Sequence record: NC_073054.1 | Strand: one strand, 5' to 3' | From: Escherichia phage JLBYU37 | Length of the DNA: 45,011 nucleotides | Shown here: piece by piece, positions 3,587 through 42,218 of the stretch | Layout: the number at the start of each line of letters is the position of its first letter | How positions within the stretch are numbered: position 1 is the first letter of the stretch | Notes under the pieces: model-generated | Told to the model about the DNA's origin: nothing | The model's input: the letters and a program-made list of their open reading frames with translations, nothing else | The model's database searches: none | Position numbers and translations under genes: made by a program

Positions 3587-3861
3587 CACCAGAAGGCAAG
3601 ATTCAAAGTCACCTGATGAGACGGGTGAAAGATGTTGGCGGATTCTGCCGCAAACTGGCATGGGAGGGGCGCGCAGGTGCGCCCGATCTGATTATCATCA
3701 TCAACGGCAAAATAGTGTTCGTCGAAGTGAAGCGCCCCGGAGGAAAACCGAAGCCGCACCAGGTACGTGAACATGAGCGGATGGCCCGCCGCGGCGCTGA
3801 CGTTCGCGTTATAGACAACATCGCCGACTGTGATTTATTGGTTGCTGAATTGGTCGCATAG
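3583..3861 (+). CDS. VRR-NUC family nuclease
   Basis: 92 aa; PD-(D/E)XK-type core DLIII...VFVEVKRPGG typical of VRR-NUC. Confidence 0.75.
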   Translation: MTPEGKIQSHLMRRVKDVGGFCRKLAWEGRAGAPDLIIIINGKIVFVEVKRPGGKPKPHQVREHERMARRGADVRVIDNIADCDLLVAELVA

Positions 3862-4341: not shown

Positions 4342-5766
4342 ATGGCACGTTTCCGACGTCGCGAATATCAGAAGTTGATAACCGCGTTCATCCTCAAGCA
4401 TAAGCGCTGCAATATTTGGGCGACAATGGGGTCGGGTAAAACCGGCGCGACCATGTGGGCGCTGAATAAAATGTTCCAGACTGGCATCCTGTCCGACCAG
4501 GATGACCGCGTACTGGTGCTGGCCCCGCTGCGCGTTGCGTCCGGTACATGGCCCCCGGAACAGGAGAAATGGCGCTTCCCAGCCTTGCTGGTAGTAGACG
4601 GCACTGGGCCAGAGAAGGACCGCATCGCTGCGCTTGAGAGCGACGCTAACGTGGTTTGTATTAACTATGATGTAGTTGAGTGGCTTGTTGAGTATTGCGG
4701 CGACGAGTGGCCCTTTACGGTCGTGGTTGCCGATGAATCCACTAAGCTGAAAGGCTATAGAAGCAAGCAGGGAAGTAAGCGCGCCCGTGCGCTGGCAGCG
4801 ATCGCACATAAGCACGTCAAGCGCTGGATTAACCTGACTGGCACACCCGCACCAAACGGACTGAAAGACCTGTGGGGTCAGACGTGGTTTGTCGACGGTG
4901 GCGAACGCCTCGGCAGTAGTTATAAGGCATTCACAGACCGCTGGTTTATTAGCAAGCCGGTTAAGCCTGGCAGCTTCACGACGCAGCACGCCCCGCTTAA
5001 GAACTCCGAGAAAGAAATACAACAACGACTGTCCGACGTGTCGCTAACCGTTGATGCGGCTGAATACTTCGGGTGTGACAAGCCAATCTATACGCCGGTT
5101 GTTGTGGACCTGCCGAAAAAAGCACGCAAGATTTATGACCAATTCGAAGCGGAGCTATTTGCCGAACTGGAAAGCGGAACGGTGGAGGCGGCGAACGCTG
5201 CTTCGAAGACTATTAAGGGCCTTCAGCTTGCTTCCGGGGCCGTGTATAAGGTCGACGAAGACGGCGAGCGCACCGACGAATGGGTGAAAATTCACGACGC
5301 TAAACTGGACGCGCTGGAAAGTATCGTGGAGGAGTTGAACGGCGCACCGTTGCTCGTTGCCTACCAGTACAAGCATGATCTGGCACGTCTCAAGAAGAAA
5401 TTCCCGCACGGCGTTGCGTTGGGTAAAGGTAAGCAGGGCAATAAGGATATGGAAGCGTGGAACAGGGGCGAGATCCCCATCATGTTTGCACACCCGGCAT
5501 CGGCAGGTCACGGCCTTAACTTGCAGGATGGAGGACACCACCTTGCTATCTTTTCCGACACCTGGAACTATGAGCACTTTGCGCAGATCGTGGAGCGTAT
5601 CGGGCCTGTCCGCCAGATGCAAGCCGGGCACCCTCGTCCAGTATTCGTCTACATTATCCAGGCGCGCGGCACACTGGATGAACTGGTCGCCGAACGTCGC
5701 GACAGCAAGCGTGATATTCAGGACGACTTGATGGAATACATGAAAGCTAAAAAGGCGCGCAAATGA
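4342..5766 (+). CDS. SNF2/DEAD-like superfamily 2 helicase
   Basis: Track ORF 4252-5766; likely start ATG 4342 (MARFRRREYQ) with AGGCGGA RBS. Walker A-like MGSGKTG, motif II ADEST, C-terminal helicase domain. Confidence 0.85.
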   Translation: MARFRRREYQKLITAFILKHKRCNIWATMGSGKTGATMWALNKMFQTGILSDQDDRVLVLAPLRVASGTWPPEQEKWRFPALLVVDGTGPEKDRIAALESDANVVCINYDVVEWLVEYCGDEWPFTVVVADESTKLKGYRSKQGSKRARALAAIAHKHVKRWINLTGTPAPNGLKDLWGQTWFVDGGERLGSSYKAFTDRWFISKPVKPGSFTTQHAPLKNSEKEIQQRLSDVSLTVDAAEYFGCDKPIYTPVVVDLPKKARKIYDQFEAELFAELESGTVEAANAASKTIKGLQLASGAVYKVDEDGERTDEWVKIHDAKLDALESIVEELNGAPLLVAYQYKHDLARLKKKFPHGVALGKGKQGNKDMEAWNRGEIPIMFAHPASAGHGLNLQDGGHHLAIFSDTWNYEHFAQIVERIGPVRQMQAGHPRPVFVYIIQARGTLDELVAERRDSKRDIQDDLMEYMKAKKARK

Positions 5767-6772: not shown

Positions 6773-6773
6773 A

Positions 6774-6805
6774 TTGGTTGCATAATCATATTGGTTGCAC
6801 TATCT
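6774..6805 (+). promoter_or_regulatory. sigma70-like promoter built on two direct TTGGTTGCA copies
   Basis: TTGGTTGCA at 6774-6782 and 6791-6799; TTGCAT (6777-6782) N17 TATCTT (6800-6805). Feeds gene 6856. Confidence 0.45.
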
Positions 6806-8230: not shown

Positions 8231-8697
8231 AACTACTGATTTGCGATTTGGATGGCGTTATTAACGGTTCAAGCGATGCGCGTGCCGACCTGGTGCCGGG
8301 GATAAAAACGAAATCAACCTTTTGGGTAAAGTGGCACAAAGCGCACGTTCGCGAAGACCTGAACATGGATATGCTGCCGCTACTGCGCATGTATCAAGAG
8401 CAAGGCTTCGAGATCGCGTATCTGACAAACCGGCAGCGCGAATGCTGGGACACCACCGCCGAGCAATTGGAAGTATTCCCCGTAGGGCGGTTGTTTATGC
8501 GCCACATGCTGGACGACACCCCGCCGCCAGAGTTTAAGGCGTGCGCCGTGTTCAAAATGGTCTGCTACGCGGACGTGTCAGAACTGGTCATCATTGAAGA
8601 CTGCCCGAAGAACATTGCAGCTATCCGTCGGGCGTGTAGCGATTTGGTCCCGAATATTTACGCAATAAACGTTGCGAAATTCACTTGCAACCAATAG
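8227..8697 (+). CDS. HAD-superfamily phosphatase-like protein
   Basis: 156 aa; N-terminal LICDLDGVIN resembles HAD motif I (DxDG). Confidence 0.5.
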   Translation: MKLLICDLDGVINGSSDARADLVPGIKTKSTFWVKWHKAHVREDLNMDMLPLLRMYQEQGFEIAYLTNRQRECWDTTAEQLEVFPVGRLFMRHMLDDTPPPEFKACAVFKMVCYADVSELVIIEDCPKNIAAIRRACSDLVPNIYAINVAKFTCNQ

Positions 8698-8714
8698 GTT
8701 GGTTGCACTATAGT
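8685..8714 (+). promoter_or_regulatory. palindromic operator TGCAACCAA-tagg-TTGGTTGCA overlapping a promoter
   Basis: Perfect 9-bp inverted repeat 8686-8694 / 8699-8707; TTGCAA (8685-8690) N18 TATAGT (8709-8714); upstream of gene 8760. Confidence 0.45.
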
Positions 8715-9930: not shown

Positions 9931-12344
9931 TTCTTCAACGCCGCGATCTCGGCCTTCAAATCCTCCACCTGCTTATTGAGATATTGAACACACCCCATCA
10001 AGTCCATTACGATCGGGTTAACGTCGATGGATGGGCGGTCCGTCATCTTCTCCCCGATCTTGTTGCCGTCTTCGTCGAGAATATCCTCGATCGGGAACTC
10101 GTGGTGCTTAACGTACTGCGGCGCAATTAACTCCGCTTCTTCGGCGATAATACCGAAGCGCTGGCGGGCCTGCTCATCATCCTTATACACGAAGTTAACA
10201 AGGTGCTGGCTGTTAATGCGGTCCATAGCTTCGCTTGCGTCCGCATCGGCAATATCTTTCTTATACTCGCGGCCGGATGTGCCTTGCAGCGCGATAGTCC
10301 CCGATGCGGTAGTCGGGAAGTTAAGCATAATTTCGCCGGTACGGTTCCCATCCTTACGTCGCATAAACAGGCGAAAATATCGAGTGCCGCTCTTGTCTAG
10401 TGCCGGTTCGAAGAACGTCCTACCGCCTACGACGTCGTTCGGCACGGTTTCGCCTACGGTGTAGTACGGTTCGAATGCAAATTGCGGGTAAGACCCGCGG
10501 CTTACTGCCAGGCTGCCGACGATATCTGACCCTGAACTGTTCACTGTTAGCTTGCCGGGTAGGGTCATCTCGCCGCGGGTGTTGAAGTCAATGCCTGAAC
10601 TCTGCGCCGTCTCCAGGTTAGTGATCGCCAGGCGGGCGTAAGTCTCACCGTCGATATTCGCACGGACGCGCAGCTTTGCTTCCGAGTGTAAAGAAGTACC
10701 GACACGATATTCAGATATAATGCTTCCGCCGTCTGCCGTAGTGCCCGCTGGTGGTTTAGTGGCGTCGCCGTTGATTACCGACCACGACGTGTTAGCGGCG
10801 GCGAATCCGCCTGACGCTCGAATAACCCACACGCCCATGAAGTTATTGGGGCGCAACTCCGATACGGTCCGGCCATAGATCGCGTTGACCTTCGAGGCGT
10901 CCATGTTAATGATGCCGTAGGAGACTGCGCCGTTACCAACAGGTAGGTTGCCTAGCGACCGATATTGCGAAGCCGCTCCACCAGCCCCGTGGAACGCGCC
11001 ACTTTCATGGTTGATAATACTTGCTGACCCGCCGCCGTGTAATTCGATGCGGCCTGTGATGTTAGGTGCTCCTGATTCGTAGATATACCCATCGTTGCCA
11101 CTTTGCCCGCCGTCACCCCGGCAGAACAAGCCGAATATTGACCCAGGCTGAACGCCATTACGGTCCGGCACTCGGAAGGTAGTTGTGCCGTCACCCGTAG
11201 AATACTTTCCGCGCTGATTTGGGTTTGCCAGCCAGGTCTCGTCACTAATTGGCGACAGCATTTGCGCATACGCCCAAAGCTCAGGCCAATCAGCGCGGTT
11301 TAACAATTGACCATCGGACACCACTTCGTAAGGTTGAATATACGCGCGGCTGTCCCGTAAATGGAAATCACCTACGCCATAGTTCATGACGCCGTTCATT
11401 GTAGGGCCGACAGTGCCGGTGTTGATCAGGTTCTGCACCCAGCGCTTTGTCGTGGCGTCGTAGTCACCAACAGGGTCGCCGGCCAGTGGTGTTGCCCCGT
11501 CCGGGCGAACGTTAAGCCAGGCTCGCGGTTTGTCGGTGAGTCCCGCCAGGTTGCCTGATTTTGTTAGCAGGTTATCCGCGTTAACGCTTTGCGCCCACTC
11601 CTCGGCCTGATCGCGGAATCCCTGCGCGGCTGTGCTGGCAGCTTGCGCGTCCGTCTTCGCGGTGTTGGCCTCGTCCCTCATAACGCCGGTGTCAGTCTTG
11701 ATCTGGTTCGTCTGGTCTTTGATGGCCTGCGTATCAGTCTTAATCTGGTCCGTCTGCGTCTTGATGGTATTGGTGGCGTCGTGGATAGCCTGCGTATCCG
11801 CCTTAATCTGGTCAGTCTGCGTCTTGATTGTATTGGTATCGTTTTTGAAGCCTTCGGCCTCATCCCGAAATCCTTGCGCTGCGGATTTCGATGCTTCGGC
11901 TTGCGCTGCGATGTCGCGCATCTCAACGGGGTCTACGTTCTTAAGCAATTCCGACAGGTATCCCCATGACATTCCCTGCATGACTTGCCCGTTAGGTAAC
12001 GTCACTGTGATTTCTTCAGCGTCGCCGAAGATTGCGCGCCAGTTGTTTTCATCTGCGATCATCAAGCGCAACGCTTTCTGCGCCTGTACTGTTACGCCCA
12101 TCGTTGCCAGCGACATGGTATCGCGCTTAACGCCATCCCACGCAAGGCCGGTTGCCGTTGGGCCGTCGAACGGCAGAACCAGCGTGAGCGCGGTTGCGCT
12201 TTCAATGGACGCGATTGCCACGGTGTAGGGGACTTGTCCTACCACCAGCGTTAAGAAGTCGCCAGCTTCAAACGCGGTAAACGTTGTGCCGACCCCTACT
12301 ACCGCCTTGCTATTGTTCGTTACGGATAGTGTACCCGCTGCCAT
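9927..12344 (-). CDS. tail fibre with C-terminal intramolecular chaperone (peptidase S74-like) domain
   Basis: Track ORF 9927-12371; likely start ATG 12344 (MAAGTLSV) with GAGGA upstream. Central coiled-coil repeats; C-terminus ...DADASEAMDRINSQHLVNFVYKDDEQ...LKAEIAALKK typical of self-cleaving chaperone domains. Confidence 0.8.
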   Translation of the reverse strand: MAAGTLSVTNNSKAVVGVGTTFTAFEAGDFLTLVVGQVPYTVAIASIESATALTLVLPFDGPTATGLAWDGVKRDTMSLATMGVTVQAQKALRLMIADENNWRAIFGDAEEITVTLPNGQVMQGMSWGYLSELLKNVDPVEMRDIAAQAEASKSAAQGFRDEAEGFKNDTNTIKTQTDQIKADTQAIHDATNTIKTQTDQIKTDTQAIKDQTNQIKTDTGVMRDEANTAKTDAQAASTAAQGFRDQAEEWAQSVNADNLLTKSGNLAGLTDKPRAWLNVRPDGATPLAGDPVGDYDATTKRWVQNLINTGTVGPTMNGVMNYGVGDFHLRDSRAYIQPYEVVSDGQLLNRADWPELWAYAQMLSPISDETWLANPNQRGKYSTGDGTTTFRVPDRNGVQPGSIFGLFCRGDGGQSGNDGYIYESGAPNITGRIELHGGGSASIINHESGAFHGAGGAASQYRSLGNLPVGNGAVSYGIINMDASKVNAIYGRTVSELRPNNFMGVWVIRASGGFAAANTSWSVINGDATKPPAGTTADGGSIISEYRVGTSLHSEAKLRVRANIDGETYARLAITNLETAQSSGIDFNTRGEMTLPGKLTVNSSGSDIVGSLAVSRGSYPQFAFEPYYTVGETVPNDVVGGRTFFEPALDKSGTRYFRLFMRRKDGNRTGEIMLNFPTTASGTIALQGTSGREYKKDIADADASEAMDRINSQHLVNFVYKDDEQARQRFGIIAEEAELIAPQYVKHHEFPIEDILDEDGNKIGEKMTDRPSIDVNPIVMDLMGCVQYLNKQVEDLKAEIAALKK
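11695..11841 (-). repeat. tandem ~63 bp repeats (about 2.3 copies) inside the tail fibre gene
   Basis: GTCTTGAT...CTTAATCTGGTC.GTCTGC units at 11695, 11758 and 11821 encode 21-aa repeats (TNTIKTQTDQIK.DTQAI.D). Confidence 0.6.
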
Positions 12345-12361
12345 AGCTAAATCCTCATAAA

Positions 12362-12407
12362 TTGGTTGCAATCCTGGCTGAGCGGTGTAATACTAAAACT
12401 CAACCAA
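12362..12407 (+). promoter_or_regulatory. promoter/operator in the divergent region between tail fibre and lipoprotein genes
   Basis: TTGGTTGCA 12362-12370 supplies -35 TTGCAA (12366-12371); TAATAC at 12388-12393; inverted half-site CAACCAA at 12401-12407. Confidence 0.45.
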
Positions 12408-22506: not shown

Positions 22507-22569
22507 TATGCAGTCCCCTTTTTTATGCAGTTGCCGATGGATATTGTATCAGCGATTTCAAAACAAACC

Positions 22570-22890
22570 TTATTCAGTCTCAGACGAGGGGAGCCATTGA
22601 CCCCCGTCTAGTCTGAAAGACTGGGGTGCTATCCCGCTGTCCCGATCGGCTGAAAACCGCGGCAGCACTGGCGGGGATGGGGTGCTGTCCCGTTTTGTCC
22701 CGCCCCTTGTTTGTCCCGCTTTCTGTCCCGCTTACTTTATGCAATAAAACTGCATAGGTATGCACATTTACAGGGCGTGACAAAACGGGACGTCCCGCCT
22801 GTCCCGCTTTGAGTTTATGCAATGAAAGTGATTAGATATGCGGTTTTACAGAGGCGGGACAAAACGGGACGTCCCGCCTGTCCCGCTTCA
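22570..22890. repeat. non-coding iteron-rich element, copy 1 (between GT chaperone and tape measure genes)
   Basis: 22570-22756 is ~90% identical to 39025-39211. Multiple GTCCCGC/TGTCCCG half-sites; 31-bp direct repeat GACAAAACGGGACGTCCCGCCTGTCCCGCTT at 22779 and 22857; 12-bp palindrome CGGGACGTCCCG at 22786-22797 and 22865-22876. Confidence 0.75.
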
Positions 22891-28446: not shown

Positions 28447-28490
28447 TTGCAATCCGGGTGTTGGTTGCATATATTGGTTGCACACCAACC
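28447..28490 (+). promoter_or_regulatory. sigma70-like promoter with two TTGGTTGCA copies and a GGTTG-cacac-CAACC palindrome at the start site
   Basis: TTGCAA (28447-28452) N17 TATATT (28470-28475); motif at 28461-28469 and 28474-28482; palindrome 28476-28490; GAGGA RBS 7 nt before ATG 28505. Confidence 0.6.
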
Positions 28491-38231: not shown

Positions 38232-38497
38232 TTGCTCAGTCTCCCGTGTTTGCCCACCCGCTCAATGGCGGGCTTCTGGCGTAATGTAATACGTATTCCC
38301 ATTGGTTGCAAGGAAGTCCGCACCCTGAAATCGTGTTGTGCTGCGAACTGGTGTAAGTAGCGAGTCTGCGTCAACGGCTTTACGTCGTCGCGATAGCACC
38401 AGAATACCGATTCGCCCTCAACTGCATTCTCAGCCCATATTCGTATGCAATGCAGGGGAATATGCCACGAAAGCTGTTTTGCTCGCCTACGGCCCAT
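38222..38497 (-). CDS. hypothetical protein (91 aa)
   Basis: AAGGGG RBS directly after the stop of gene 38507-38812. Confidence 0.4.
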   Translation of the reverse strand: MGRRRAKQLSWHIPLHCIRIWAENAVEGESVFWCYRDDVKPLTQTRYLHQFAAQHDFRVRTSLQPMGIRITLRQKPAIERVGKHGRLSKCS

Positions 38498-38506
38498 TTT
38501 GGCCCC

Positions 38507-38812
38507 TTATTTCGCAAGCTGGGTGAATAGCTCACGCTGGGCTTTAATCCGGGCGACGTTTGTCACTGCCTTATCGCCAATACCGAAGCGATATGCCAGG
38601 CGCTCGCGGGAGAATGCACGCGCGTATTCGTGGATTGCCTTCGCCAGCGTCTTCAGTTCGTCAAGGCTGGCATCCATGCCGTCGAGCGCATACATGATTG
38701 CCTGCTGGGCCAGTATTACTACATGCGCCGCGCGGTCTGCGTTGCCGTTCAGAGCCTTCGCTTCGTCCAGCTTCGCCAGGGCCATTGCGTAATTCCAGAT
38801 TAATGCTCTCAT
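38507..38812 (-). CDS. hypothetical helical protein (101 aa), first gene of the minus-strand operon
   Basis: GAGGA RBS; preceded by the motif-bearing promoter at 38824-38880. Confidence 0.5.
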   Translation of the reverse strand: MRALIWNYAMALAKLDEAKALNGNADRAAHVVILAQQAIMYALDGMDASLDELKTLAKAIHEYARAFSRERLAYRFGIGDKAVTNVARIKAQRELFTQLAK

Positions 38813-38823
38813 CGTTCAGTCCT

Positions 38824-38880
38824 CATGTTGGTGTGCAACCAATATAGCAAGGTGCCAGGGCGAATGCAACCAATATTAAT
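38824..38880 (-). promoter_or_regulatory. sigma70-like promoter with two motif copies (minus strand)
   Basis: On minus strand TTGCAT (plus 38864-38869) N17 TATATT (plus 38841-38846) followed by GGTTGCACACCAAC, same cassette as at 28470-28489; TGCAACCAA at 38834-38842 and 38865-38873. Confidence 0.55.
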
Positions 38881-39024
38881 CACGCGCATGAAAAAGTTGA
38901 TCGCTATCTGCTGTGACTGCAAACTGCGTTTTTCACTCCGCATAATGCAACCCGCATTGGTTGCCTAGTTCATCGACGACCGCTCTTCGCATCATGCTGC
39001 CGTGTATTTTGCAATCTCCAGATT

Positions 39025-39211
39025 TTATTCAGTCTCAGACGAGGGGGGCCACTGACCCCCGTCTAGTCTGAAAGACTGGGGTGCTGTCCCGCTGTCCCGC
39101 TCCTCTGGAAGCCGCGTCATCCGGGGCGGGACGGGGGTGCTGTCCCGCTTTGTCCCGCCCCTTGTTTGTCCCGCTTTTTGTCCCGCTTACTTTATGCAAT
39201 AAAACTGCATA
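39025..39211. repeat. non-coding iteron-rich element, copy 2 (beside the primase-helicase gene)
   Basis: ~90% identical to 22570-22756; GTCCCGC half-sites at 10-16 bp spacing; inverted GCGGGAC...GTCCCGC pair; followed by A/T-rich stretch 39190-39235. Confidence 0.75.
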
Positions 39212-39271
39212 ACTATTCATTATATCTACACTACACGGCAACCAATGCGATATAGATTTAATGCTCAATCT

Positions 39272-39352
39272 GGCAACCAATACGCGCACAAATTAATCGT
39301 TTAGCGATATGGGAATTCCCATATCGGCAACCAATACGCGCAAATTTTAATC
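39272..39352 (+). repeat. two ~28 bp direct repeats GGCAACCAATACGCGCA(C)AAATT(T)TAATC
   Basis: Copies at 39272-39299 and 39326-39352, 54 bp apart; second copy overlaps the primase-helicase stop codon. Confidence 0.6.
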
Positions 39353-41611
39353 TTTTAAGTCATCATCGGTCGCCGAAAGCGTGATGGGTATATTCGTTTT
39401 TATGACAATATTCGACGACCCATAGATGGCTCCGGTGTGTGGGTCTGTATAAAAACCGAGTACGCCGCGCTCGACCATATCGTCGATTGCCTTCGTCGAT
39501 GTGCCACCTTTCGCAAGCCCAGCCTGGCGGACAATTGCCGATTTACTGAATCCGGTATGGTCCGGGTTATCTTCCATCAGTTTTTCCAGCGCTGCATAAA
39601 GCACTTTCTCTTTTTCGTTGCGCGGTCCTGCTGCGTTCTCTTCCTTAACTGCTGCCTTGCCAGCGGCCTTCGCCTGTTCGATGGCGAACGGTGCCAGGGC
39701 GACCGGTACGAGGTAAAGAGTCTCGTCGCGTGGCGTGGAGGCAATTGGCTTGACGTCCCAACCGGCAACTACATCGCCGAAGTCCGGCCCGGTGCTGGTG
39801 GACTGGTGTGCCTCGAACGCCTCGGACTTGCGGAGATCCACCTTAACCTTGCACTTGAGCAGGACGAAGCCGCGCGGCGCTTGCTTAATGCCGTTACGTG
39901 CCTTCTCATGATACAGGTTCAATTGGCCTGGCTGGTTGTCGTCTGGTTGCTCCAGGAAGAACGCGGAATCGACAGCACCATGCAGCGCGCCGGACCCACG
40001 GGGAGATCTGCTGCCGTTTGCACCCTTCGCCGGGTGGTGGATGACTCCCGCACTTCCGCCGGTCTTCTCCGCGATGGCCTTCAGCGCTTTGACCACTTCA
40101 CCCATATCGCTGGCGTTGTTCTCGTCGAACGGTTTAGCATCCGCGGACCGCAACGCAACAGTCTGGTTGAGTGAGTCGAACGCCACCAGGCCAACCGGTT
40201 CGCCGTTAGCGGTGCGGTTGATAAAGCTGATAACTTCGCGCAAGCCTGATTTGCTGGTGATATCCCAGCCGCGTGACTGCAGGTCTATAATGTGCAGCTT
40301 GTCCAGGTCGTGCTCATATTTAATCTGCAATGCTTCTTTACGCTGGTTGGAGGCTTCGCCACCTTCCGCGTCAAAATAGAAGCAATGAGACTGGACGACC
40401 TTCGCACCGCCAAACGGAATACCCGCGGCAACTGCGCCCATCTGGCCCAGCACGTAGAAAGACTTACCGATATTCGACTCACCCGCCATATACCAGGTCG
40501 ATTTAAAGTTAATCAACCCCTCGATGATCGGGTCGTGCTTGCTGAACAGCGCAACCGGCTCGTTATCCAGATCCGCATCGGTGCACACGCCGTATTCTTC
40601 GCCGTCGCCAACCGCATCAACAATATGTTCATATAAGGATTCGACTTCCTCGTCGTCCAGCCCCGGAAGGATGGCGGCGATTTGCTTACGGGACATGTTG
40701 TGCGGTTCGACGTTCAGGTGGTCCGGGATCCCGATAAGACGTAGCGCCAGGTGCTGGTGTCTGTTCAGTTCCGAGCAACACTCGTTGCCGGTGTGCATAC
40801 ACTTGAAACGGATCTCGCCATCCTTGACCATGATAGCCGTCGACCCTTCGCCGCTGTGCAGATGTTCGTTCGGGCACGGCACTTCATAACCGCGACCAGA
40901 AGATAACTCCTCGAATCCGGCCTGGAAGCACCAGTCCAGAATGCCGTCTGCCACTGCGTCGTCGCCCTGGGTAAGCTCGCGGCGTACTTCCTCTTTTTCC
41001 ATTCCCAGCTTATCAGCCAGGCGAAGCAGACGACGGACGCGGGCACGTTTGCCGTAGTGACACTTAACAACCGATTGCTGGTGAGGCAGGTACATAAGGC
41101 GGTTTGTGTCTTTCGTGCAGTCGTCGAAGTCCACATCTGACAGGCCCAGTTGGTGCAATAGCGCATACTGGACACGGCCCAGGTCTTCAGCCGGTACAGG
41201 CTTGTCGGTCAACACAAGGAAGCGAGCGCAACGCGTTCCACCTTTCAGTGGGTGACGGTCGCCGGTTGTGGTGTGGAAGACGTGCTCCAGTCCCGCGTCG
41301 ATGAACGCCTTACGGCAGCGGCGTAGGGTGCGGGTGTCAGTACGGTCAATATCGAAGAACAGGATCGAGCGGTCCACCGCACTGGTCTTGCGACGTAAGC
41401 CGTCACTGGTATAAGCCACAATACCATCGGCCTTACGCTTGCGGCGTGCATACTCCGCTTTATCTTCCGTCTTGTTGATATGCACCGAGGATATTTCTTT
41501 CGCATCATTAATAAATTCGAAAAACTCATCGGTGGTCATCTGGAAGTTTTCCGCCCTGGCTTTTTCGCCTTTTTTAGCGGGTTTTGTTACAGCGAATTTA
41601 ATCAAGCTCAT
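39347..41611 (-). CDS. primase-helicase (N-terminal primase-polymerase-like domain, zinc-binding region, C-terminal P-loop NTPase)
   Basis: 754 aa; ILFFDIDR acidic motif, Cys/His cluster CPNEHLH...CMHTGNEC, Walker A GESNIGKS, Walker B-like LVAFD. Confidence 0.8.
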   Translation of the reverse strand: MSLIKFAVTKPAKKGEKARAENFQMTTDEFFEFINDAKEISSVHINKTEDKAEYARRKRKADGIVAYTSDGLRRKTSAVDRSILFFDIDRTDTRTLRRCRKAFIDAGLEHVFHTTTGDRHPLKGGTRCARFLVLTDKPVPAEDLGRVQYALLHQLGLSDVDFDDCTKDTNRLMYLPHQQSVVKCHYGKRARVRRLLRLADKLGMEKEEVRRELTQGDDAVADGILDWCFQAGFEELSSGRGYEVPCPNEHLHSGEGSTAIMVKDGEIRFKCMHTGNECCSELNRHQHLALRLIGIPDHLNVEPHNMSRKQIAAILPGLDDEEVESLYEHIVDAVGDGEEYGVCTDADLDNEPVALFSKHDPIIEGLINFKSTWYMAGESNIGKSFYVLGQMGAVAAGIPFGGAKVVQSHCFYFDAEGGEASNQRKEALQIKYEHDLDKLHIIDLQSRGWDITSKSGLREVISFINRTANGEPVGLVAFDSLNQTVALRSADAKPFDENNASDMGEVVKALKAIAEKTGGSAGVIHHPAKGANGSRSPRGSGALHGAVDSAFFLEQPDDNQPGQLNLYHEKARNGIKQAPRGFVLLKCKVKVDLRKSEAFEAHQSTSTGPDFGDVVAGWDVKPIASTPRDETLYLVPVALAPFAIEQAKAAGKAAVKEENAAGPRNEKEKVLYAALEKLMEDNPDHTGFSKSAIVRQAGLAKGGTSTKAIDDMVERGVLGFYTDPHTGAIYGSSNIVIKTNIPITLSATDDDLKD

Positions 41612-41621
41612 TGCCGTGGCC

Positions 41622-41951
41622 TTACTTAGAAGTTTTATTATTGCGTACCCAGGAGCGCACTGTGCTCTGATTAATTCCGGTCAACTCGGCAATCATCGCC
41701 CAGGATTTGCCCTCGGCGCGCAAACGGATAACCTGTTTTTTGTATTCTTCCATTTCTTCATTGTGCTTTTGCAGCTTGCTTGCTGCCGTGCCGTTGAGCA
41801 ATTCCAGCCTGGCGCGTAATTCTTTTTCGACACTGCGCAGTCGTTCGATTTCAAATAATACAGCCCCCACGGCATCGGTATATGCCCATGACCGGCTTGT
41901 CTCACTGCTAACAGTCTTCGTTAACATTTCGATTGCGTCGTTTACATTCAT
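41622..41951 (-). CDS. small HTH DNA-binding regulator (109 aa)
   Basis: C-terminal helix-turn-helix SWAMIAELTGINQSTVRSWVRNN; N-terminal coiled coil; GGGGG RBS; divergent from the early promoter region. Confidence 0.55.
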   Translation of the reverse strand: MNVNDAIEMLTKTVSSETSRSWAYTDAVGAVLFEIERLRSVEKELRARLELLNGTAASKLQKHNEEMEEYKKQVIRLRAEGKSWAMIAELTGINQSTVRSWVRNNKTSK

Positions 41952-41965
41952 TGTTCTGCCCCCAG

Positions 41966-41980
41966 TTGGTTAATGACCAA
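41966..41980. promoter_or_regulatory. palindromic operator TTGGT-taatg-ACCAA upstream of the HTH regulator gene
   Basis: Inverted repeat 15-29 nt upstream of the regulator start codon; same TTGGT half-site as the dispersed motif. Confidence 0.4.
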
Positions 41981-42024
41981 TGAAACTACACCTAAAACCG
42001 CAGGGTGTCAACTCCTCTGGAATA

Positions 42025-42118: not shown

Positions 42119-42129
42119 GAAATTAGTTG

Positions 42130-42158
42130 TTGACTCCCTTCTGCAACCAATCTAATAT
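42130..42158 (+). promoter_or_regulatory. near-consensus sigma70 promoter of the plus-strand early operon
   Basis: TTGACT (42130-42135) N17 TAATAT (42153-42158); TGCAACCAA motif at 42142-42150 inside the spacer. Confidence 0.6.
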
Positions 42159-42218
42159 TCACTCCGTCGACAGGGCATACCGCCCGGACACCTAAACTTA
42201 ACCAATCGGAGATATACC

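Follow-up and report, generated by a model that had tools for sequence, protein, structure and literature searches.

A heptamer-repeat module beside the primase-helicase gene of Dhillonvirus phages as a candidate replication origin

The repeat region of phage JLBYU37

The genome sequence of Escherichia phage JLBYU37 (NC_073054.1), which was analyzed as one stretch of 45,011 nt and is referred to as the window, is that of a Dhillonvirus, i.e., an HK578/SO-1-like coliphage. Its minus strand, read from 41951 to 9927, encodes a 109-aa helix-turn-helix (HTH) protein and a 754-aa primase-helicase, followed by 534 bp of non-coding DNA (38813–39346) and then by small genes, the lysis genes, the terminase, the head genes and the tail genes; DNA polymerase and other replication genes are on the plus strand, which is coding from 42219 across the window ends to 9899. 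Here, we describe a repeat-rich module directly 3' of the primase-helicase gene, at 39025–39352 and in its proposed function reaching to ~38990, which is a candidate replication origin. The 3.3 kb around it matched 157 phage records at 80–95% identity, nearly all of them Escherichia and Shigella Dhillonvirus phages (HK578, SO-1, JL1, SSL-2009a, bob, Bas84 and others), and conservation within the genus was assessed in an alignment of 18 Dhillonvirus genomes. Heptamer words are given as read on the gene (minus) strand, on which GTCCCGC of the plus strand reads GCGGGACA. The features of the locus, in the direction of transcription, are:

41622–41951, minus strand: 109-aa HTH protein, first gene of the early operon; Pfam HTH_23, HTH_28 and Sigma70_r4_2 at aa 65–105
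39347–41611, minus strand: primase-helicase, 754 aa; Pfam AAA_25, PHROG 3228 'replicative helicase-primase'
39326–39352: repeat copy 2 (a TTGGTTGCC site on the gene strand), overlapping the primase-helicase stop codon (39349–39347, minus strand), in a 54-bp duplication
39305–39326: perfect 22-bp palindrome CGATATGGGAATTCCCATATCG, inside the 54-bp duplicated block; contains an EcoRI site
39272–39299: repeat copy 1 (a TTGGTTGCC site), the site being kept in 17 of the 18 aligned genomes and lost in L010
39237–39249: third TTGGTTGCC site, GGCAACCAATGCG, exact inverted partner of 38953–38965; invariant in the 18 genomes
39190–39235: A/T-rich patch with conserved box GAATAGTTATGCA and the inverted pair TTATGCA-N7-TGCATAA (39192–39212)
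39142–39186, minus strand: heptamer group 1, four direct GCGGGACA copies (GTCCCGC at 39142, 39152, 39168 and 39180 on the plus strand)
39123–39161: 10-bp perfect inverted repeat GGGGCGGGAC / GTCCCGCCCC holding the inverted heptamer (39126–39132); forms a stem in the single-strand fold
39086–39100, minus strand: heptamer group 2, two direct GCGGGACA copies
39030–39078: 49-nt composite stem-loop with arms CAGTCT/AGACTG, CAGAC/GTCTG and GGGGG/CCCCC
38995–39005, minus strand: conserved box ACACGGCAGCA, invariant in the 18 genomes
38946–38965: inverted GCAACC-N6-GGTTGC operator-like site
38835–38874, minus strand: promoter of the next operon (−35 TTGCAT at 38869–38864, 17-nt spacer, −10 TATATT at 38846–38841; ATG at 38812)

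GTCCCGC occurs 20 times in the window, compared to 9.3 ± 3.1 occurrences expected from 100 shuffles of the window, none of which reached 20. Fifteen of these copies fall into two clusters: one is the array of the module (39086–39186; six direct copies and one inverted), and the other is located in the tail operon (22697–22886; seven plus one). The seven GCGGGACA copies of the module lie 161–263 bp 3' of the primase-helicase stop codon in the order four direct, one inverted, two direct. Both clusters are inside a gap-free 187-bp repeat of 90% identity with sharp borders (39025–39211 vs. 22570–22756), and the two loci, region B beside the primase-helicase gene and region A in the tail operon, are 16.4 kb apart. 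In all 18 Dhillonvirus genomes the sequence, number and order of the heptamers are unchanged while the spacers between them vary, including by 1-nt indels. The invariance of the heptamers amid variable spacers indicates that they are under selection, and the single-base indels among close relatives indicate that the array is not coding. The small open reading frames (ORFs) that many records annotate over the arrays as hypothetical proteins are hence not genes, and both regions are routinely mis-annotated in this way.

The A/T-rich patch that adjoins the heptamers (39190–39235) contains 74% A+T, compared to 45.6% in the window, which ranks it in the top 0.06% of all 46-nt windows, tied for the most A/T-rich. 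TTATGCA is enriched as well (15 vs. 5.8 expected), and the GAATAGTTATGCA box is kept in relatives whose primase-helicase shares no more than 37–46% protein identity. As a side observation, the TTATGCA-N7-TGCATAA pair (39192–39212; 22737–22756) has constant arms and a 7-nt loop of either orientation: roughly one half of the Dhillonvirus genomes have GTTTTAT, and the other genomes have the reverse complement, ATAAAAC. Template switching at a hairpin produces flips of this kind. Groups 1 and 2 of the heptamers are separated by a G+C-rich spacer. Beyond group 2, the stem-loop at 39030–39078 has flanks that are invariant across the 18 genomes, and the 221-nt fold that includes it has a z-score of −2.7. 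Distant relatives carry a G+C-rich hairpin with short flanking inverted repeats at the equivalent position, of other sequence; RNAalifold, applied to a cross-genus alignment of the hairpin, recovered the G+C stem alone, with weak covariation, the flanking arms having been left unaligned by MAFFT.

Region A consists of the 187-bp shared core plus two extra units, which carry GCGGGAC-GTCCCG palindromes, and it was found in all 157 matching phage records. Palindromes such as CGGGACGTCCCG and inverted heptamer copies occur there. Its features, and the ORFs mis-annotated across the arrays, are:

22570–22890, minus strand: region A, the second copy, between the tail-chaperone T segment and the tape-measure gene
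22543–22551, minus strand: extended −10-like TGATACAAT, ~35 nt upstream of the tape-measure start codon
39035–39289 and 22580–22822, minus strand, and 16985–17164 of L006: mis-annotated ORFs (e.g., Bas84_0054, Bas84_0017-0019, PhiSTP1_021)

The TGATACAAT element is kept in three contigs whose tape-measure protein is 60% identical (L164–L166) and is, judged from its sequence, a candidate internal promoter of the tail operon. In Bas84 (L005, PQ850611.1), a run of 12 C at ~11210–11240 stands in place of the first region A unit, which is either a real deletion or an artefact of sequencing or assembly. The record of SO-1 (NC_013600.1) already holds repeat_region features at the orthologous loci, i.e., region A upstream of the tape-measure gene (11214–11597) and region B 3' of the helicase-primase gene (40178–40657), both called 'direct, inverted and palindromic repeat sequences' with mutual similarity and given a function that the record words as 'possible'. 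The source of this description is a database note; the literature searched contained no paper analyzing the two SO-1 loci, nor any on these repeats or on a Dhillonvirus replication origin. Regions A and B divide the genome into two arcs of 16.4 and 28.6 kb, and two short records, OK272475.1 (JLBYU27, 16,547 bp) and OR992647.1 (ST-T-K, 28,657 bp), match these arcs almost exactly in length; they probably result from closure at the 187-bp repeat, either during assembly or by recombination. A Logan contig (ERR11172925_9173), too, has region A at its start and region B at its end. The 187-bp repeat thus explains broken or partial assemblies in public records.

Conservation of the module and switching of the heptamer word

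The module lies directly 3' of homologous primase-helicase genes in relatives down to 37% protein identity. The wider comparison comprised the Cornellvirus PhiSTP1 and three uncultured relatives (L027, L029, L032; primase-helicase identity 37–46%), in all of which the elements follow in a common order: an A/T-rich patch with the GAATAGTTATGCA box, which frequently takes the form TTATGCA-N7-TGCATAA; two groups of a 7-8-mer that is specific to the lineage, separated by an inverted copy; a G+C-rich hairpin; the ACACGGCAGCA box; and the promoter of the next gene. One iteron copy precedes the A/T-rich box in these four genomes, and the three uncultured relatives keep the module although their downstream genes differ. 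In PhiSTP1, the word GGGGAGA forms the sole cluster of its genome, with six direct copies and one inverted, starting 7 bp past the stop codon; the position of region A is occupied by coding sequence, and a second array is absent. The ACACGGCAGCA box is also present in a further relative (L030), where it adjoins a promoter.

Closer relatives, found by a protein search with the primase-helicase (67–70% identity) and examined for the module on their contigs, share with the window the module, the hairpin arms and the TTGGTTGC sites (described below), and differ in the repeat word. GCGGGAC is the word of the window, L020, L037 and L041, GTGTGGCA that of L038 and L039, GTGTGCCA that of L040, and GGTGCCA that of L162 and L163, the five lineages being roughly equidistant from each other (67–76% identity). 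Across all lineages, at least eight different words were found in the common layout, including GCGGGAC, GTGTGGCA, GTGTGCCA, GGTGCCA, GGGGAGA, GGGATAA, GGGGATG and TCCGACAG. A word that switches while the layout is kept is the behavior of a binding site co-evolving with a specific reader.

Region A of the switched lineages was recovered via homologues of the tape-measure gene. One contig of 27.6 kb spans region A to region B and carries GTGTGGCA at both ends (L164, L038), and two further contigs, from the samples of L039 and L040, have GTGTGGCA and GTGTGCCA arrays, respectively, upstream of the tape-measure gene, matching region B (L165, L166). Both regions therefore switch together, which indicates that they are read by one specific factor and that both are maintained. 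Repeated switching of specificity and the presence of a second copy are the most interesting aspects of the system.

In Kagunavirus and Jerseyvirus (32–35% identity), a terminator and a convergent HTH gene are found where the array would be. In IMG/VR, the pattern GTGTGGCA-N-GTGTGGCA matched 120 loci, all of them unrelated and lacking the hairpin, and a plasmid search for an autonomous replicon with the module returned, as its sole full-length match, a 44-kb E. coli 'plasmid' at 34% identity.

Candidate reader proteins and the operator-like motif

Two products of the early operon are candidate readers of the DNA elements in the module. The primase-helicase is composed of an N-terminal part resembling archaeo-eukaryotic primases (AEP-like, by PHROG), a Cys/His cluster, a RepA-type helicase core and a predicted C-terminal winged helix (aa ~666–740). 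Its AlphaFold2 model has a mean predicted local distance difference test score (pLDDT) of 78.8, and the best Foldseek match is RepA of RSF1010 (1g8y; E 1.2e-9, template modeling score (TM) on the target 0.71, root-mean-square deviation 2.8 Å). In a PDB sequence search, matches of the protein had E values of ~0.5–0.9 at best, and no similarity to P4 alpha was found. The C-terminal 75 residues are modeled (pLDDT 79) in the order helix, helix, helix, strand, wing, strand; nearly all of their top 50 Foldseek matches in PDB are winged-helix proteins, the best being MarR-type regulators, linker histones, Rio2 and winged helices of ORC (E 0.05–0.3, TM 0.4–0.57). With an RSF1010-RepA-like core and a predicted C-terminal winged-helix-like domain, the protein would have the parts of a self-loading initiator, and we infer that it is the best candidate for reading the heptamers. 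The neighboring genes encode an HTH_23 protein and small proteins, with no RepC-like Pfam match among them.

The 109-aa HTH protein can be excluded as the heptamer reader: its HTH (GKSWAMIAE[LI]TGIN.STVRSWVRN) is invariant in nine lineages that differ in their heptamers and keep the TTGGTTGC motif. It is the likely reader of this second motif. In relatives, the protein is named 'DNA recombination nuclease inhibitor gamma', 'transposase' or 'resolvase'; Pfam recognizes the C-terminal HTH only, and these names look like propagated errors.

The TTGGTTGC motif, or GCAACCAAT, is an operator-like sequence that recurs throughout the genome and is carried by the two 28-bp direct repeats at the primase-helicase end of the module. 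These repeats (39272–39299 and 39326–39352) are identical in 24 of 28 bases (88% over 32 nt), and a third, degenerate copy follows at 39237–39268 (63%). Their common core, GGCAACCAAT, has 28 matches in the window with at most one mismatch, compared to 12.5 expected, at about 20 mostly intergenic places, where it is often paired or palindromic (e.g., TGCAACCAA-TAGG-TTGGTTGCA at 8687–8706). One copy fills the spacer of the strong early promoter TTGACT-17-TAATAT (42125–42160), and a related palindrome comes after the promoter of the HTH operon. The motif is found at:

11–35, 3837–3857, 6773–6798, 8687–8706, 12361–12369 (first half of the window)
28460–28481, 38301–38309, 38835–38874, 38946–38965, 39237–39335, 41966–41983, 42143–42151 (second half of the window)

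Repeat copy 2 and the 22-bp palindrome are present or absent together, as a 54-bp block (39299–39352) that occurs in nine of the 18 Dhillonvirus genomes, is absent from the other nine, and looks like a tandem duplication with a palindromic junction. Tandem TTGGTTGCC sites are found at the equivalent place in the relatives at 67–70% identity, and the motif stays constant in lineages with changed heptamers. In the promoter of the next operon (38835–38874), each hexamer is overlapped by a TATTGGTTGCA site; this promoter is conserved in the 18 genomes, and conservation is the sole basis of its call, the −35 hexamer matching the consensus at three of six positions, below the scan threshold. Two observations from elsewhere concern the same motif. 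In an uncultured relative (L031, 46% identity), the operator-like word of Dhillonvirus, GCAACCAAC, is repeated nine times behind the 3' end of the primase-helicase gene (5268–5560), in place of a separate heptamer array. In the T1-like phage TLS, unexplained 21-nt intergenic repeats have been described, which the motif of the window resembles (PMC11447400).

A replication origin and its alternatives

The original prediction had pointed to this place as an iteron-type replication origin or regulatory hub next to the primase-helicase gene, and the anatomy that it listed is confirmed: the GTCCCGC copy, the A/T-rich stretch and the two 28-bp repeats are present, with copy 2 reaching into the stop codon of the primase-helicase gene. 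The arrangement of repeats and an A/T-rich patch beside an initiator-type gene is indeed origin-like and deeply conserved. However, the 28-bp repeats, which had been named as the iterons, are not iterons, and it is the GCGGGACA heptamers that are iteron-like. The notion of a regulatory hub holds, too: the region has operator-like sites and is followed by the conserved TTGCAT-17-TATATT promoter of the next operon. The prediction is therefore partly supported, with the place right, the kind of element probably right, and the named iterons wrong.

Judging from sequence, structural models and analogy, we regard it as an even question whether the region is an origin whose iterons are read by the initiator, of the type found in staphylococcal pathogenicity islands (SaPIs), P4 or pRN1. 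The early operon would supply the HTH regulator and the multidomain primase-helicase. The latter, or a partner protein, would read the GCGGGACA heptamers (four direct, one inverted, two direct), probably via the C-terminal winged helix, and assembly on the heptamers would open the A/T-rich TTATGCA patch next to them. Loading or priming may be aided by the structure of the conserved long hairpin, and the primase-helicase would prime and unwind before the phage's own polymerase takes over. The anatomy of the module, its conservation, the joint switching of both copies, the constancy of the HTH protein and the domain composition of the primase-helicase are observed; the identity of the heptamer binder and the start of replication upon binding are what we infer for such a module. 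The TTGGTTGCC sites, including the 28-bp repeats, would be operators for the HTH regulator and would thereby place origin use, or transcription reading through from the early operon, under regulation. Region A, if read by the same factor, would be a second origin or an enhancer resembling crr of P4.

Such an arrangement has precedents. The SaPI origin comprises 6–12 short (5–8 nt) lineage-specific iterons, some in opposite orientation, immediately 3' of rep, and Rep is a self-loading helicase that reads them by a C-terminal winged helix and is fused to a primase in SaPI5 (PriRep5) (PMC9371898). The window likewise has seven heptamers, one of them inverted, 3' of the gene of a primase-helicase for which a C-terminal winged helix is predicted. 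However, its helicase core is RSF1010-RepA-like and belongs to the RecA/DnaB fold class rather than to the class of SaPI Rep (PMC9371898). Moreover, the unwinding region of SaPIs lies between the iterons, whereas the A/T-rich patch of the window is at the edge of an array with a G+C-rich center, and the phage has a second array 16.4 kb away. In P4, the alpha protein combines primase, helicase and a C-terminal winged-helix origin-binding domain in one polypeptide, and two separate cis elements, ori and crr, carry the same short iterons at a spacing of 4.5 kb. Regions A and B are comparable in that they carry the same heptamers and switch together, but the PDB sequence search detected no similarity to P4 alpha, the helicase is of another class, and the spacing is 16 kb. 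The archaeal plasmid pRN1 has an operon of a repressor (orf56) and a primase-helicase (orf904) with an essential cis element within ~170 bp 3', which contains a long origin stem-loop, and its authors pointed out the same arrangement in some phages (PMC4234260). The order of HTH gene, primase-helicase gene and, 3' of it, a conserved 49-nt stem-loop in the window is similar; pRN1 differs in lacking an iteron array, in its archaeal host, in its superfamily 3 (SF3) helicase and in a stem-loop of ~100 nt. The oriV of RSF1010 contains iterons, G+C-rich and A/T-rich segments, and hairpin priming signals. In structure, the helicase core of the window is matched best by the RepA helicase of this IncQ plasmid, but the iterons there are 20 bp long and read by a separate RepC, and the primase is RepB', whereas the repeats of the window have 7–8 bp, primase and helicase are fused, and no RepC-like gene was found beside the array. 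An origin of this general kind, known from other mobile elements, is the most likely function of the region.

Several observations weigh against an origin at 39.1 kb or against the proposed reader. The cumulative GC-skew over the full genome, which the original prediction had suggested as a check, does not have its minimum at 39.1 kb but at the divergent early promoters (~42.0 kb); since the skew follows the coding strand, turning at the coding-strand switches at ~42.0 kb and ~10 kb and being negative throughout the primase-helicase gene, it neither supports nor refutes an origin there. The window contains no match to the DnaA box TTATNCACA, and the conserved TTATGCA boxes match the DnaA-box consensus at just 7–8 of nine positions; a DnaA reading of TTATGCA was dropped because of the missing DnaA boxes. 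The G+C-rich spacer between the heptamer groups is unlike the A/T-rich center of SaPI origins, and an origin copy inside a tail operon is unusual. A heptamer array is missing from six relatives at 43–46% identity (L023–L026, L028, L030), in which the primase-helicase gene is followed by terminators and convergent genes, so that the array is not a constant companion of this protein family. With respect to the reader, 26 residues distinguish GCGGGAC lineages from GTGTGGCA lineages and 12 of these lie in aa 600–754, but with more lineages, discriminating residues are as frequent in the N-terminal 270 aa as in the C-terminus, and the C-terminal enrichment is mild. The idea that 'SKSAI' in helix 2 sets the heptamer class was refuted by P0009/L162, which has SKSAI like the window and GGTGCCA repeats. 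Given Foldseek E values of 0.05–0.3, the assignment of the heptamers to the modeled winged helix is weak.

A serious rival, though on balance a rather improbable one, is that the module acts in transcription only, with the heptamers as sites for a phage activator, repressor or roadblock: region B, with the hairpin and the HTH operators, would separate the early operon from the next, and region A would restart transcription before the tape-measure gene. This role is compatible with the location of the two copies, each directly ahead of a gene block and with a promoter-like sequence behind it (TTGCAT-17-TATATT at B, TGATACAAT at A), with the density of operator-like sites, with the promoter adjoining the ACACGGCAGCA box in L030, which has no heptamers, and with the absence of any signal in the GC-skew at 39.1 kb. 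On the other hand, the downstream promoters of distant relatives are near-consensus sigma-70 promoters (TTGACT-17-TATTAT, TTGACA-17-TATTGT), which should need no activator; the array keeps its place 3' of the primase-helicase gene despite differences in the genes that follow, the sole obvious regulator nearby does not co-vary with the heptamers, and the hairpin lacks a T-run. Scans of 38400–39500 for sigma-70 promoters and terminators found neither. Far less probable is an element acting as RNA, i.e., a 3' untranslated region of the early operon or a separate RNA whose repeated GGGA-type words and hairpins guide processing or antitermination, or serve as binding sites or a sink for an RNA-binding protein. 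Many lineage words do contain GGA (CGGGACA, GGGGAGA, GGGATAA, GGGGATG), the hairpin keeps its shape while its sequence changes across genera, and the folding z-score is low, but the GTGTGGCA, GTGTGCCA, GGTGCCA and TCCGACAG classes lack GGA, and inverted copies and palindromes such as that in region A point to double-stranded DNA sites. Rfam 15 yielded no match at gathering score in the window and, at E ≤ 1 in 38780–39400, a single chance match to a snoRNA (E 0.78; 17.7 bits vs. a cut-off of 50 bits); neither a conserved promoter nor a terminator brackets the element, and the TATAAT at 39225–39220 is not conserved outside the genus.

The grouping of four and two heptamers around a central spacer recalls the pac site of P1, in which hexamer groups flank the cleavage point. 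It is nevertheless quite unlikely that the module is a pac or recombination site, with the heptamers binding the small terminase subunit or a recombinase on both sides of a cleavage or exchange point. Four records (PTXU06, Zar3M, SP1, 101114B2) begin a short way downstream of the module, at the window-equivalent of 38916/7, and two (UAE_MI-01, EcoIv6a_Kente) start or end inside region A, but ends at a 187-bp repeat are a typical product of assemblers, and all these record ends are either physical termini, assembly breaks or copied conventions. Moreover, the terminase genes are 4.5–6 kb off while the array always adjoins the primase-helicase gene, the HK578 and Bas84 records start at the terminase gene, the paper describing PTXU06 reports no termini for the group, and two pac sites per genome would be odd. 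One more record, 22664B1, starts ~28 bp from 38916/7. The least probable reading, to which we give hardly any credence, is the original version, in which the two 28-bp repeats are the iterons of a theta-type origin and 39190–39235 is its unwinding element. The repeats do exist and flank the A/T-rich patch on the side of the initiator gene; however, one of them belongs to the 54-bp duplication missing in half of the genus, including the evidently viable isolates HK578, SO-1 and EP23, L010 lacks the other as well, their core occurs at about 20 places genome-wide including the early promoter spacer, and the motif is constant where the heptamers change. We therefore consider the 28-bp pair to be, by its sequence and distribution, a recent and dispensable duplication of an operator-like site.

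With initiator-read heptamers as the preferred reading, the module provides a bounded origin candidate of ~270 bp, a named likely reader and natural variants of specificity. A more far-reaching version, which we put forward tentatively and hold to be rather doubtful, is a two-site initiator system in Dhillon-like phages: an origin 3' of the primase-helicase gene and an array in the tail operon, served by a RepA-class (RecA/DnaB-fold) primase-helicase that loads itself via its C-terminal winged helix, and whose iteron specificity has been swapped repeatedly. GCGGGAC, GTGTGGCA, GTGTGCCA and GGTGCCA would have been exchanged among phages that are ~30% diverged while the regulator and its operators stayed fixed. 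If this is true, each lineage would, through such switching, keep its replication to itself in mixed infections, and the lineages would provide a naturally occurring series of origin-initiator pairs that are orthogonal to each other. Dhillonviruses belong to the coliphages that are isolated most often and are included in model collections such as BASEL, and the tail-operon copy and the changes of word in this group pose a tractable question, namely how origin-initiator pairs diversify.

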